Made by a program: the position numbers and the translations under genes. The notes below the pieces were generated by a model, which was not told the DNA's origin, ran no database searches, and saw only the letters and a program-made list of their open reading frames with translations. A DNA stretch of 64,000 nt from assembly GCA_037442365.1 (NCBI GenBank), contig JBBIQK010000003.1, forward strand, positions 40,526 to 104,525. Reading direction: 5' to 3'. Positions 42,334 to 64,000 of this stretch are shown here, one piece after another (positions within the stretch are counted from its first letter, which is position 1; each line of letters begins with the position of its first letter). Source of the DNA: Armatimonadota bacterium. Lineage in GTDB: Bacteria; Armatimonadota; Fimbriimonadia; Fimbriimonadales; GBS-DC.

Positions 42334-42410
42334 GGCCCCATGGTCTAGCGGTCCAGGACGCCTGGTTTTCAGCCAGGAGGACGGGGGTTCGAATCCCCCT
42401 GGGGTCACCA
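42334..42410 (+). tRNA. tRNA-Glu (TTC)
   Basis: GGCCCCA/TGGGGTC acceptor stem, CCTGG-TTTTCAG-CCAGG anticodon arm, GTTCGAATC, encoded CCA. Confidence 0.96.
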
Positions 42411-58890: not shown

Positions 58891-59069
58891 GTTATACCAA
58901 TCGGCGGGTCAGCGTTCGTTAATTGAGGCTGGATTGCGTAGATGAACCGAACCCCCTCCTTAAGGTTCCCCCTGCGTGCAGGGGGAACCGAGTCTTGGTT
59001 CCCCTCGCTTGCGGGGGGAACCTTACGGAGGGGGGTATTAACGAACTCTGACAGCGCAATTGGTATTAC
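58891..59069. mobile_element. MITE-like non-coding element with nested inverted repeats
   Basis: Outer GTTATACCAAT/ATTGGTATTAC; inner GTCAGCGTTCGTTAAT/ATTAACGAACTCTGAC; internal GGTTCCCC...GGGGAACC hairpins. Confidence 0.75.
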
Positions 59070-59104
59070 AACAGAGCAGCTCAATTCGATAAGGAAAGCA
59101 CATC

Positions 59105-59635
59105 TCACGAGATTAGTTCGCGCAGTGCAGCTTCGTTGACTGTCAGGTTCTCTGTATGGACAAAGAGAATTCGCTCCTCCACCTGAGAGCCTATCTCCCT
59201 GTCATAGAGGTTTATGCTCAACTGAGCGCTATCGCCCAGATGAACCTCTATGTACCCATCCCCCTCGCAAGTGGCGACTCTCAAACTATTCGCGTTGAGT
59301 TCGATCTCTGCTATCGCAGGATAGGACGCTTCTGCGGGAACCTGATCAATCACATCACGAAACCCGATTATCTCAATCACAATCAGGTAGAGCGGAGACC
59401 TTGATTGCGCATAAAACGGCGGAATACGCAGGGTGGTCGTCAACTCCGAGTTTCGGTGGAATGCAATTAAGATATTCAGTTTGTTGTCAGAGACCGTAAT
59501 CCGAAGGAGATGAGCGTCTCCCTCCGACATGTATCTCTGCAAGTCATCAGGACATAGTTGCTGCCTCAAGCAGTCTGCCATTTTGGTTGCGTTTTCAGGC
59601 TGGGAGTTTAATACGACCTCAACAACGCATTCCCC
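59105..59635 (-). pseudogene. 5'-truncated hypothetical (immunity-like) gene joined to an RHS remnant
   Basis: Lower-GC open frame; upstream part of the 238-aa ORF is out-of-frame RHS sequence. Confidence 0.45.
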
Positions 59636-59778
59636 TGTAAAAACCGCCCAATCGTGGGGTAATACCAGCGCACGCCCACCTTCTGCGACCCGCCCGTGAG
59701 CGCCCCGTTCTGATACCCCCACGCACCGTTCCAGTTGTAGGTCGCCCGCACGCCATTCACTGTATCGCGGAATGCATT
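59636..59778 (-). pseudogene. RHS core remnant
   Basis: [22 protein letters not shown]...[16 protein letters not shown]. Confidence 0.85.
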
Positions 59779-59817
59779 CATAATCAAGACGAACAATATC
59801 GGCTGTTGAACTCATCG

Positions 59818-60069
59818 TCAAAATTCATCGTTATACGAGCGATAAGCCAGGTACGCAAACCCCAACCCCATAAAAAACAAAAACGCTGGCTCGGAAAACG
59901 CCACAAAGTGTGCCGGGTATTCTGCTTCACCGCCTTTGTGCTGAGCCACTACCATGCCCTCTTCGTCCGCTTTACTGAAGGTATCAAGCGAACTGATAGC
60001 CGCCACTATTGAGCCGATCATAATGATTGCTGACAGTGTCATGGCGAGTATGTATTGTGCTTTGCTCAT
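59818..60069 (-). CDS. Small two-TM protein, possible orphan immunity protein
   Basis: AGGAGG RBS, two hydrophobic helices, follows RHS remnant. Confidence 0.6.
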   Translation of the reverse strand: MSKAQYILAMTLSAIIMIGSIVAAISSLDTFSKADEEGMVVAQHKGGEAEYPAHFVAFSEPAFLFFMGLGFAYLAYRSYNDEF

Positions 60070-60095
60070 AATCGCCTCCTATCGCAGGTTGTGTA

Positions 60096-60227
60096 CTATC
60101 CGCCCAGTCGCTGAATGCCCCCCGTGAGCAGCGTAGCCATGTCGCTGCGTAGGCTCCAGTGCATAGACTCCGTTCTCGCGCCGAGCGATTGGACGTACAT
60201 TGTCGTGATATGACAGAAGTATACCCA
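60096..60227 (-). pseudogene. Highly degenerate, internally deleted RHS core remnant
   Basis: WVY...MY-Q...HWSLRSDMA joined directly to LTGGIQRLG. Confidence 0.75.
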
Positions 60228-60229
60228 CC

Positions 60230-60619
60230 TCAAGGATTTTTTGAATACGGCTGGAGGGTCTGCAAGTCGCCTATGCATCGATAGTGGCGCGTATTGAAAG
60301 TGCAGAGAACCCCATCACGCACCACACAGACGCTCCCGATAATTGCATCGATGATGCTCAACCGACATCGCAGGTAGTTCGCTTGAAAAAGCCTCAGAGC
60401 CTGCTGCATCTCTTCCTCGCCTGGATACCAGACGCCCAGCGGCGCTATCAGCTGCTCGACCACGGCAAGCTCCTGACGATTGCGACAGCCCTGAACCAGC
60501 TCCATCACAGACAGCGAGACCACCACAGGTTGTTCTTCAAGTGTCGCGAGCCATTCAACTGCAGGCGCATAGCCCCGCAGGATATCGATGAGAATATCGG
60601 TATCCAATACGCACTTCAT
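60230..60619 (-). CDS. PIN domain (VapC) toxin
   Basis: LDTDILID, MELVQG, DAIIG, TFNTRHY. Confidence 0.92.
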   Translation of the reverse strand: MKCVLDTDILIDILRGYAPAVEWLATLEEQPVVVSLSVMELVQGCRNRQELAVVEQLIAPLGVWYPGEEEMQQALRLFQANYLRCRLSIIDAIIGSVCVVRDGVLCTFNTRHYRCIGDLQTLQPYSKNP

Positions 60620-60867
60620 CGGATGCGCTGGTTCGCTTTGCGCCGCAGCTGACGCGCCCAGCGCGCGCTGGCGGTTTTCGGCTTGCGGTGCGCCCACGCG
60701 CCAATCACCCCTGCGGCGCGCCATGCCGCCACTACCTGTTGCCCAGCAGGCGCCTCAAGCGGCTCGATGGTCACGCGCACGCGCTGCCCTTCAGGCAGGT
60801 CCAGGGGCTGCTCCAGCACAAGGTGTTGCCCTTCGTAGCGTGCTTCCACAGTTGTAATCATGGTCAT
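60616..60867 (-). CDS. AF2212/DUF104-like antitoxin
   Basis: VEARYEG--L-L--PLDLPEGQRVRVTI; ATGA overlap with PIN gene. Confidence 0.82.
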   Translation of the reverse strand: MTMITTVEARYEGQHLVLEQPLDLPEGQRVRVTIEPLEAPAGQQVVAAWRAAGVIGAWAHRKPKTASARWARQLRRKANQRIR

Positions 60868-60924
60868 CCCTTCTTTGTAGGATACCTCAGAGGGCACAGG
60901 CGTATCTATAAGCGCGAGGTCTGT

Positions 60925-61146
60925 TCACTGGTGCGGTTGCAGTAGGGATGGGGCGTAAAGCATCGCCGCCTGCAGGTCTTCGCGCTCCAGGTCGGGATAG
61001 TCGCGCAGAATCTCTTCAGGCGTCATCCCGCTGGCGAGCCACTCCAGCACGGTCGCCACAGGGTAGCGCAGCCCACGAATGACAGGCTTGCCGTGGCAGA
61101 TGTTCGAATCGCGCGTGATTCGGCGCAGCAGACTGTTCGCTTCCAT
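60925..61146 (-). CDS. DUF433 domain protein
   Basis: ICHGKPVIRGLR, GMTPEEILRDYPDLEREDL. Confidence 0.92.
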   Translation of the reverse strand: MEANSLLRRITRDSNICHGKPVIRGLRYPVATVLEWLASGMTPEEILRDYPDLEREDLQAAMLYAPSLLQPHQ

Positions 61147-61260
61147 CAGGGAGAGTATACCTGTGCTGGAGGGAGGCGCCTCTCGCGTCGCCTCGTGATG
61201 GGAACGCATCCAATCGCTAGCTACGCGCGCTTCGGCGTTCGCTGGAGGTTAAGTCGCCGC

Positions 61261-61385
61261 GTGAACAGCCTTAGGTTCCTGCTGGACACCGATACGATGA
61301 TCTACTTTTTCAAGGGGGGAAGGGTGCGTGGCGGACAACCTGCTGCAAACGCCGCCAGCGGCAATCGCCCTTTCTTCAGTGATGT
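61261..61385 (+). pseudogene. VapC N-terminal remnant
   Basis: FLLDTDTMIYFFKG, frameshift in a G6 run, then EGCVADNLLQTPPAAIALSSV, truncated. Confidence 0.75.
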
Positions 61386-61396
61386 TAGATTCCATT

Positions 61397-61684
61397 CTAT
61401 TTATATATAAAGAATAATATCCATGTAATTATTGAAAATAAAGCTCCGACGAGAAGAAACGAGAAGCCAATCTCACCGAGAAAGTCATGTTTGCTCCAAA
61501 GAGTTGCCATCACGATTAGTGAAAAACCTGCCAGCAGTGATGCTGCAGATAAAAAGCCCACCACAAAAACGGGACGCGCCCGAACCACTGCCCTTTTGCT
61601 CTTTACCAGGTAATGATAAGTTAGCATCATCACCAGGCTTCCTACCCATGCAATCAGCGCACCTATCAGTTTGCTGTCAGGCAT
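61397..61684 (-). CDS. Small low-GC three-TM protein, possible orphan immunity protein
   Basis: Hydrophobic 95 aa, GAGGA RBS, downstream of RHS remnant. Confidence 0.6.
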   Translation of the reverse strand: MPDSKLIGALIAWVGSLVMMLTYHYLVKSKRAVVRARPVFVVGFLSAASLLAGFSLIVMATLWSKHDFLGEIGFSFLLVGALFSIITWILFFIYK

Positions 61685-61736
61685 AGCTTTTCCTCAATAG
61701 GTTCAGGGATGTCTCTAGACCTGTTGCGACTGTATC

Positions 61737-62021
61737 TCAAGCAGGAGCGGTACCTACCGCAGGGTCGTACCCGCACACGCCCACCTTCTGCAATCCGCCC
61801 GTGAGCGCCTCGTTCCGATACCCCCACGCGCCGTTCCAGTCGTAGGTCGCCCGCACGCCGCTCACTGTGTCACCAAAGGCGTTGGTGAGGGGCGCAGGCA
61901 GATACGCGCCGCTGAAGGTAGACTTCGCGGCTAAGTCGCCGCGCAGACTCCAGTGCGTATACTCCGTTCCCGCGCTACTGACCTGCTGGTACATCGCTGC
62001 CCCGTAGCTGGAGTATACCCA
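61737..62021 (-). pseudogene. RHS core remnant without toxin tip
   Basis: [13 protein letters not shown]...HWSLRGDL...[10 protein letters not shown]...YDPAVG then diverges; close DNA match to about 63340-63611. Confidence 0.88.
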
Positions 62022-62107
62022 GTTACCGTTAGTGCGCTCGGCAACCAGCCAAGTTAGGAACGACAAGCGGTCTTTAGCAACACACTACACTCCAGTTGAG
62101 CGATATA

Positions 62108-62917
62108 TCACTTTTCTCTAATTGGCTCCCATAGAGTTGCCGGGTAAGAGGGATGAGCCCGCTTCGCTTCTTCTATCAAGTTGTTGGCTTCTTTAATGTT
62201 TCCACGAATCAAGGCGATATTTGCCAACGCTTCTAAAGCCTTTGCCTTATCTCGCGGTTCGCTCGCCAAGGATAAAGCCTCCTGAAACCAGCGCTCGGCT
62301 TTACCCCACTCCTGCTGTCGCGAGTAAACGATTGCTATTCCATATGCAGCGGAACTAAGTTGCTTGTCAGCTTTCAGGGCAAAACGGTAAGCCTTTAGTG
62401 CTTGTGTAAGAGAGGTTTTTCGTCCTTCTATTGAGTGCCAGTCAAGATACAGATTTCCAAGTCCCATAAAAGCGTCTGCACGCTGTGAAGGGGTATAAGC
62501 GAGTTTTACCAGAGTTTCATAAGTTTGCTCAGCCAACATCCACTGAGGGGGTTCAGAATATCTATATGATTCTGCTAACCCAAAATATGCTGAAACGAAC
62601 AGAGGGTCTTTTTCTACGCATTTTTTAAAAAAAGGAACAGCGTCGGCAAAACGGCGGCGTGCGTGCAACGTTCGCCCCATTTCATAATGAGCGGTTGCAC
62701 TGGTGGGGTATTGGCTGATTAAGGTAGCAGCCGTATTCTCTTCAATAATTGGTCGGATATCTAATGGGGGAGCGATAAAGACTCTCGGCTCCATTCGCGA
62801 GGGTGTTGTGGGCTTGCTACTTGGCTGGCAAGCACACAGGAGTAGTAAAACGCCCCCAATGCCGATTGCATTAACCCATGCCCTCTTACCAGTAGCGCCA
62901 AATGGATTCATCAGCAT
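62108..62917 (-). CDS. TPR-repeat lipoprotein, candidate cognate immunity or partner protein
   Basis: GGGAGG RBS, LLCAC lipobox-like motif, several TPRs, overlaps RHS stop. Confidence 0.72.
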
Positions 62918-63584
62918 CCCCCTCCCGAACATCAGGAAGTGTCGTTCCTGGTGTCCAGTCTGGTTGATTATGCTTCCGTTGGTCATCAGGACGGAGATTC
63001 CCCCAAGTAGGTGGAGTGGTTTCAGGGTTTTCCTGGTATCTTTTTCGGTCTTCGTTCATCTTATCACGAAACTCTTGTGCGTTCTTAGCCTCGTGACAGC
63101 CGTGTAGAACTTCACCCAATACCACGGTACCTCCTATACCAAGTCCACTGATCAATCTACTCCCAAACCTTCCAAGCCTCGCGACAAAGCCTCCTATGGC
63201 GTTAATTCCATTGCGTATAGCAGATAAGATACACCCACTCGGATCCACCAGTTGCAGTGGGTCATTCACGCAGTACCCATACCCATTCAGCGTTCTCGGC
63301 GCGTAGACAGACCCCAGCCACGGATCTACCTGCAAGAACCGACCCACCGACGGGTCATACCAGCGCACGCCCACCTTCTGCAAACCGCCTGTGAGCGCCT
63401 CGTTCCGATACCCCCACGCCCCGTTCCAATCGTAAGCCTCCCGTGCGCCGTTTACCAAGTCCCCAAACGCATCCGTGACGGGCGCAGGCAAGTACCCTCC
63501 ACTGGGAGTGGACTTCGCGGCTAAGTCGCCGCGCACACTCCAGTGCTTATACTCGGTTCCCGCGCTGCTGACCTGCTGGTACAT
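62886..63584 (-). CDS. Short RHS repeat-associated core protein with unrecognised C-terminal tip
   Basis: [33 protein letters not shown] then about 115 aa; start placed at MYQQ (ORF is open to 63743). Confidence 0.85.
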
Positions 63585-63755
63585 CGCTGCCCCGTAGCTG
63601 GAGTATACCCAATCTTTGCGACTTGTTGGCGAGCCACTCCAACACAGTCGCCACAGGATAGCGCAGCCCGCGAATGACAGGCTCGCCGTGGCAGATGGTC
63701 GGGTCGCGTGTGATACGGCTGAGTAATCACTCTGTTCCTTCATAGTTTTATCAAA

Positions 63756-64000
63756 TCATTTAGAATGTTCCATATCTAACTGATACAATCCCACTGATCT
63801 ACTAACCGTGTCCTGATTTATACCGAAAACGCGTATAATCCCTTCCCAATCCACTTCAATCCATTGCCCCCCCCACCCCAGATATACACTCAGGCAAGGG
63901 TCATATTTAGCAAGCACACCTGTTGGTCCGTTCAACTCAATCTGCCAGTCTAAACGCCCGTTCATATCACTTCGTGCAATCCAACTGCTGCTCAGCACAA
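63756..64000 (-). CDS. Hypothetical low-GC protein, 3' part only
   Basis: Open frame running off the window edge within the RHS island. Confidence 0.45.
   Translation of the reverse strand, partial: VLSSSWIARSDMNGRLDWQIELNGPTGVLAKYDPCLSVYLGWGGQWIEVDWEGIIRVFGINQDTVSRSVGLYQLDMEHSK

Follow-up and report, generated by a model that had tools for sequence, protein, structure and literature searches.

A predicted −10 element embedded in the core of displaced rhs fragments of a Fimbriimonadales (Armatimonadota) genome

Colicin structural genes carry a constitutive promoter for the immunity gene in their 3' part, and immunity is expressed independently of toxin induction. Among Rhs systems, orphan rhs-CT/rhsI modules have been described as displaced fragments which usually lack initiation signals (Koskiniemi et al., 2014; PMC3967940). 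As reported for Salmonella Typhimurium, active internal promoters, P2A and P2B, are located in the core common to main and orphan rhs genes (Starsta et al., 2020; PMC7043789). The internal transcription start site in that work, mapped by 5' rapid amplification of cDNA ends (5'-RACE) and reporters, lies 89 nt upstream of where PxxxxDPxGL is encoded, and the transcripts comprise the tip and the immunity gene (PMC7043789). The present analysis concerns an array of orphan rhs fragments in a 64,000-nt stretch of DNA (the window) from an Armatimonadota bacterium of the Fimbriimonadales (GCA_037442365.1, contig JBBIQK010000003.1, positions 40,526 to 104,525). Three of the four fragments carry the motif TGGGTATACT, which is RHS core coding sequence and which also matches the predicted −10 promoter element of this genome. 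It is considered probable that the fragments were displaced with variable ends and that the embedded −10 serves as an internal promoter. A literature search combining Armatimonadota and Rhs found no paper on internal rhs promoters in this phylum.

Coordinates refer to the window unless a contig or locus is named. The source genome (2.8 Mb) is referred to as G000 and the complete genome of a congener as G012, and core codons are numbered with the W of the W-V-Y motif as 0. The window contains three copies of the motif TGGGTATACT and no more, each of them on the minus strand: 63611–63602 (copy A), 62021–62012 (copy B) and 60227–60218 (copy C). These are the positions at which the motif had been placed in a preliminary description of this DNA. 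When one mismatch was allowed, six matches were found compared with 0.73 expected, a number reached by none of 100 shuffled sequences. The spacing of 17 nt which had been pointed out was also recovered, with TATACT-N17-ATGTAC being present three times versus 0.00 expected. From the motif onward, copies A and B are identical at 99 of 105 positions. Copy C had been described as a decayed copy which keeps both motifs but not the spacer, and this is reflected in its comparison with A and B, in which 16 of 16 motif positions are shared versus 5 of 17 in the spacer and 50 of 89 at other positions. The resemblance to a −10 box that had been remarked upon was likewise found, as GGTATACT is situated 7 nt before the ATG of a DUF433 gene (61161) and ends 10 nt before the tRNA-Glu gene at 42334.

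The element is a prominent one in this genome, where GGTATACT is present 244 times and GGTATAAT 243 times, far more commonly than related words. A long open reading frame (ORF) with a high G+C content at third codon positions begins 6–9 nt downstream of 128 of the 487 copies of GGTATA[AC]T. The strict form GGTA[TC]A[AC]T ends 9–19 nt before the mature 5' end of 25 of 47 tRNA genes, and the remaining tRNA genes, whose upstream sequences were read by eye, are mostly inner members of clusters or possess near-variants. No −35 signal was detected genome-wide upstream of the copies of GGTATA[AC]T. Judged from its sequence context, GGTATA[AC]T is the housekeeping, −35-independent extended −10 of this genome. 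Leaderless transcription also seems to be very common in this Fimbriimonadales genome, because approximately a quarter of the −10 copies (the above 128 of 487) are positioned 6–9 nt before the start of a long ORF. An example of this layout is provided by the DUF433 gene (61161–61146).

The region 59000–64000 contains four strict motifs and no others. Each of them lies on the gene strand, one heading each of copies A, B and C and one the DUF433-VapBC genes. In the rhs arrays of G000 and its relatives (73.7 kb), 33 motifs were found in the sense orientation and one in the antisense orientation, where 10.6 were expected per strand. A scan for two-hexamer promoters of the Escherichia coli type returned 6 sites compared with 3.9 expected and flagged only copy C (TTCAAA-16-TATACT), such a scan being uninformative for promoters lacking a −35 element. 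Avoidance of the −10 inside genes was also examined by shuffling synonymous codons (56 observed, 11.1 expected); this test was dropped as confounded, because most matches were located close to the ends of genes or in the 5' extensions that stop-to-stop frames include.

The motif is read in frame as W-V-Y-(S/Y)…M-Y of the RHS core, approximately 118 codons before PLQLVDPSG. The arrangement TGGGTATACT…ATGTAC exists at the same place within full-length rhs genes of related genomes (two in G012 and one in G017), where it follows core sequence and is preceded by open frames of 1059, 1140, and 771 amino acids (aa). As the motif is core coding sequence within full-length genes, it is not a junction. 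Twenty distinct copies of the W-V-Y type were collected from eight genomes, 18 of which possess GGTATACT and two GGTATATT. The Val codon used, GTA, is a rare one in this genome (8.1%).

The motif was also found where coding capacity has been lost. Copies B and C encode only relics of 85 and 34 aa with no toxin, and both keep the motif upstream of an immunity-like gene. Orphan 3 of G012 has lost its reading frame across the site, yet reads GGTACAAT there, which is the third most common −10 word in G000. Three orphans of another relative, G022, have GTGTATAAT-type motifs at the same codons (V-Y-N), with ATGTA 17 nt downstream in two of them and that part decayed in the third (L042). In G012, moreover, a copy of the motif and N17-ATG abuts the truncated 3' end of a DUF433 gene and opens an ORF of 301 aa, the first 16 residues of which are RHS-derived and the rest of which is a TPR lipoprotein. 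The RHS-derived ATG, following TGGGTATACT-N17, is the only in-frame start before the signal peptide of this ORF.

As the W-V-Y codons spell the extended −10 of the genome (GGTATACT), the core would most likely carry an internal promoter, from which the tip and the downstream immunity gene may be transcribed. The orphan fragments arose by the usual displacement, truncation and deletion, with 5' ends that vary, and those fragments which keep the embedded −10 would stay expressed. Such continued expression would explain the retention of the motif in toxin-less and decayed remnants. The best explanation of the array, and a reasonably probable one, is thus that the motif is RHS core coding sequence, that the fragments were displaced with variable ends, and that the embedded −10 acts as an internal promoter. 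It had been proposed in the preliminary description that the cassettes express themselves from a promoter and a start codon of their own. The promoter half of that proposal stands as a prediction, in that the motif matches the −10 of the genome, is kept in decayed remnants and heads an immunity-like ORF in the sister genome.

The three cassettes had further been said to begin at the motif with unrelated DNA upstream, sharing one exact 5' boundary, and site-specific recombination had been suggested, with the GTATAC palindrome as a recombinase crossover moving RHS/immunity cassettes. Alignment to relatives gave a different picture. Homology to RHS extends upstream of the motif by 28 nt in B and by approximately 12–15 nt in A. 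Upstream of its W, copy B reads LVAERTNGN in frame, and its DNA matches the full-length rhs genes of G012 for 28 nt upstream of TGGG. The 12–15 nt in A resemble orphan 3 of G012, which is itself preceded by recognisable core, and are followed further upstream by a truncated DUF433 fragment. Copy C is the only one that starts at the motif (0–2 nt of RHS homology upstream), 2 nt after the vapC stop codon. The local ends are therefore found at −28, approximately −13 and 0 nt from the motif (B, A, and C, respectively), and the 5' ends of all four window fragments are at approximately −9, −5, 0, and +31/+44 codons, as befits partial core fragments with variable ends, the main gene being upstream across an assembly gap. 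When queries from four core subfamilies were aligned to the rhs loci collected from relatives and to G000, the 5' ends of 81 non-redundant orphan copies were found anywhere between codons −143 and +102, counted from the motif; scattered breakpoints were one half of what the preliminary description had itself named as speaking against its proposal. A role for recombination could be read from the presence of non-RHS DNA within 0–15 nt of the motif in the three local copies and one G012 copy, and from the 5' ends of the W-V-Y-type orphans, which are somewhat denser at −10 to 0 codons (approximately 7 of 20), although this bin was chosen post hoc and the copies are related. However, the cassette ends were without flanking inverted or direct repeats in a repeat search of the array, and no recombinase was present among the array ORFs, which belong to DUF433, AF2212-like, PIN, and TPR families or to no family, the sole trace of a mobile element being an IS4/5 fragment in G012. 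Because the motif lies inside uninterrupted full-length rhs genes, the orphan ends are scattered and no repeats flank them, site-specific recombination was rejected and is considered extremely improbable.

A rival reading is that W-V-Y is kept for the protein, that its codons are inherited among paralogues, and that the −10 match is functionless, the array being read through from the main promoter or others. This is in keeping with the motif being in-frame core coding sequence, and a number of findings weigh against an internal promoter. The motif offers only two synonymous positions and is carried by paralogous copies, so that its conservation could be inherited or protein-driven. The site is also not invariant, as two of the 20 copies (L067 and L069) possess TGGGTATATT, a synonymous TAC to TAT variant whose 8-mer is rare genome-wide (24 copies). 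With two synonymous sites and variation in 2 of 20 copies, nucleotide-level conservation would be weak evidence for a promoter. Two core subfamilies out of four, namely the C46 type and the WVVQ type of G022, show no strict motif in their last 200 codons, and for 68 of the 81 orphans none is present in the stretch from −150 to +90 nt around the 5' end. Furthermore, a scan of the array showed no terminator-like sites between the cassettes, so that the cassettes could also be expressed by transcription continuing from the main gene. Against a coincidental match stand the rarity of GTA for Val, the 16 of 16 motif positions kept in the non-coding remnant C, and the other consensus −10 variants shown at the same spot by frame-broken or diverged copies, as well as the 33:1 strand bias in the rhs arrays and the promoter positions occupied by most genome-wide copies of the 8-mer. 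On these grounds, coincidence is judged to be somewhat unlikely. Another possible reading is that of a self-expressed mini-RHS, in which translation of the internal-promoter transcript begins at the ATG (MYQQ…) and yields a truncated core-toxin. Together with the immunity protein, this product would form a toxin-antitoxin-like pair of the kind proposed for Salmonella, where toxicity of a CTG-initiated internal product is reported (PMC7043789). The ATG 17 nt after the −10 is conserved in all W-V-Y copies, a G-rich stretch is situated 5 nt before it, and the same ATG is the only start of the G012 TPR lipoprotein ORF. It is here that the start-codon half of the earlier proposal appears weak, as ATG TAC represents the core codons M-Y in full-length genes and a gap of 17 nt is rare. 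Of the 364 motif copies that are followed by the start of a long ORF, 3 show this gap and 128 a gap of 6–9 nt. A distance of 17 nt falls in the trough of the distribution, which counts against the internal promoter also. In addition, the 85- and 34-aa relics of B and C are without toxin, and the membrane- or lipoprotein-type immunity candidates would point to an envelope-acting toxin, which leaves a cytoplasmic product with no obvious role. A translated mini-RHS is thus unlikely, and translation of the window copies could start at the ATG, although this is less likely.

A more far-reaching version of the internal promoter reading can be put forward tentatively. The core may carry a portable, −35-independent promoter together with a usable ATG approximately 118 codons before the demarcation, so that each displaced tip would become an autonomous cassette for expression of an immunity gene. 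Selection on the promoter would then decide which truncations survive, with 5' ends piling up just upstream of the −10, toxin-less remnants keeping the −10, and broken copies re-evolving consensus variants. The same sequence would have been exapted as promoter and start of the immunity lipoprotein in the sister genome, and its likeness to the Salmonella P2 promoters would be a matter of convergence.

The idea that every core subfamily carries an internal −10 was considered and rejected, as two of the four are without the motif. Other potential elements were observed elsewhere in the rhs loci. In a G021 core subfamily (L044, L050, L059, and L065), GGTACAAT is found at codon +50 in all seven copies covering that position and may represent a second embedded −10; the seven copies come from one genome. 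The second rhs locus of G000, whose core is without the W-site motif, possesses GGTATACT at a distance of 78 nt before the main toxin tip's stop codon (C46:16344) and GGTACAAT at 7 nt before an orphan's 5' end (C46:19532). These C46 motifs look like other ways of driving downstream genes.

The locus is the tail of a Fimbriimonadales rhs locus, consisting of a main gene, four displaced core fragments with immunity-like genes, and a DUF433-VapBC module inserted among the fragments. Membership of the RHS family was indicated by TIGR03696, with 52 bits in orphan A and 56.9 bits in the main tip (cut-off of 32.5). The demarcation in orphan A reads PLQLVDPSG, which is of the PxxxxDPxGL type with no L after the G. 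In the full-length homologue of G012, PF05593 (RHS_repeat) was detected in six stretches (2.5e-38) along with TIGR01643 and DUF6531. Contig C84 of G000 shares 87.5% identity with the G012 core over codons −400 to −26 and stops at core codon −26, and contig C3, to which the window belongs, ends inside a fifth RHS copy which starts at +32. An assembly gap between these contigs thus interrupts the main rhs gene and conceals its W site. The array shows synteny with that of G012, 193 nt of downstream flank being 99% identical. The main rhs tip, which is beyond the window (C3:104803–105486), gave weak matches to DUF4329 and Prok-JAB, below cut-offs, and is followed by an ORF of 323 aa without a family. 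The 3' end of this ORF enters the window at 63756..64000, the remainder continuing beyond it; it is without a Pfam family and is a candidate immunity protein for the main toxin.

All features of the array (59105–64000) are encoded on the minus strand. Next to the 323-aa ORF is the truncated DUF433 fragment which adjoins orphan A (63627..63719), forming a direct repeat that is 89% identical to 61032–61124 of the intact DUF433 gene. Orphan A itself (62886..63626) is an RHS core fragment with an intact C-terminal tip, as identified by TIGR03696 and alignment to relatives. Its motif corresponds to the core codons W-V-Y-(S) and to the extended −10 of the genome, with the ATG (core codon M) at 63584–63582, and Rhs_assc_core at aa 47–126 counted from W is followed by the VDPSG demarcation and a variable tip of 115 aa. 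Remnant B (61737..62049; ATG 61994) covers approximately codons −9 to +89 of the core, and remnant C (60096..60227; ATG 60200), a decayed fragment with a relic ORF of 34 codons, covers codons 0 to approximately 33 before a jump to the LTGGxQ segment; neither has a toxin tip. Remnant D (59602..59796), with core codons from approximately +31/+44 to +104, is without the motif.

The RHS tips differ between copies and are followed by small membrane or TPR ORFs, the tips being candidate toxins and the ORFs candidate immunity genes. As noted in the preliminary description, a different gene follows each of copies A, B, and C. Orphan A is followed by a TPR-repeat protein (62108..62917; Pfam TPR families), a candidate immunity protein for tip A, whose N terminus has a hydrophobic stretch with a lipobox-like end that contains Cys (LLLLCAC); it shares 24% identity with the G012 TPR ORF, collinear from the lipobox. 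Remnant B is followed by a protein of 95 aa with several hydrophobic stretches by hydropathy and no Pfam family (61397..61684), and remnant C by a protein of 83 aa (59818..60069) that has a GGAGG ribosome-binding site of its own and, at the N terminus, a single scored hydrophobic stretch, both being candidate orphan immunity proteins. An ORF of 158 aa without a family match (59105..59581) follows remnant D and is also a candidate immunity gene.

A DUF433/AF2212-like/PIN (VapBC-like) module is present within the array at 60230–61161. It consists of the intact DUF433 gene (60925..61161; PF04255, 1.1e-26; ATG 61146), with GGTATACT at 61161–61154 in a leaderless-type layout, an AF2212-like antitoxin ORF (60616–60897; PF01954) and a VapC-like PIN-domain ORF (60230–60619; PF01850). 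Truncated DUF433 pieces abut RHS remnants in both genomes, with a 5' piece before A in the window and a 3' piece fused at the motif in G012 (L031 4440–4545). The latter is adjoined in the G012 rhs array by an N-terminal fragment of an IS4/5-family transposase (DUF4096, 1.1e-21; L031 4547–4741). Just downstream of the array (58891–59069) there are nested GC-rich inverted repeats, with 41-nt arms of 83% complementarity inside a 33-nt pair, which look like a repetitive extragenic palindromic (REP)-type element or a terminator.

Should the embedded −10 prove active, a signal in the toxin core would be keeping orphan immunity genes expressed in an uncultured hot-spring phylum, which would help to explain the persistence of toxin-less remnants. 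The internal promoter finding in Salmonella would then extend to a distant lineage by way of a non-homologous site, and the capacity of tips to express themselves would look like a general trait of rhs loci that evolved by convergence, and not an enterobacterial oddity. The −10 consensus and the heavy use of leaderless starts should also be helpful for the annotation of Armatimonadota genomes.

The embedded −10 is probably a further case of the internal rhs promoter already shown in Salmonella. Like P2A and P2B as reported, it is a core-embedded site common to main and orphan genes and situated upstream of the demarcation, here predicted from sequence. P2 is described as giving transcripts of the tip and immunity gene without reliance on the promoter that the main gene itself has, and the same logic is proposed for the present array. 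The two differ in position, as the −10 here ends approximately 340 nt upstream of the PLQLVDPSG codons compared with the 89 nt reported for Salmonella, and in type, being an extended −10 without a −35 signal. The phylum and the core segment are also different and the site is therefore not homologous to the Salmonella promoters; the immunity candidates here are of a membrane or lipoprotein type. The likeness to colicin genes is one of logic only, colicins being plasmid bacteriocins of an unrelated protein family. With the orphans described by Koskiniemi et al. (2014), the fragments share their variable length, their location downstream of a main rhs gene and a core homology that would allow recombination with it. 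Those orphans are each reported with a tip and an immunity gene, whereas B and C are without a toxin tip. Also unlike those orphans as described, three of the four remnants here carry a consensus −10.

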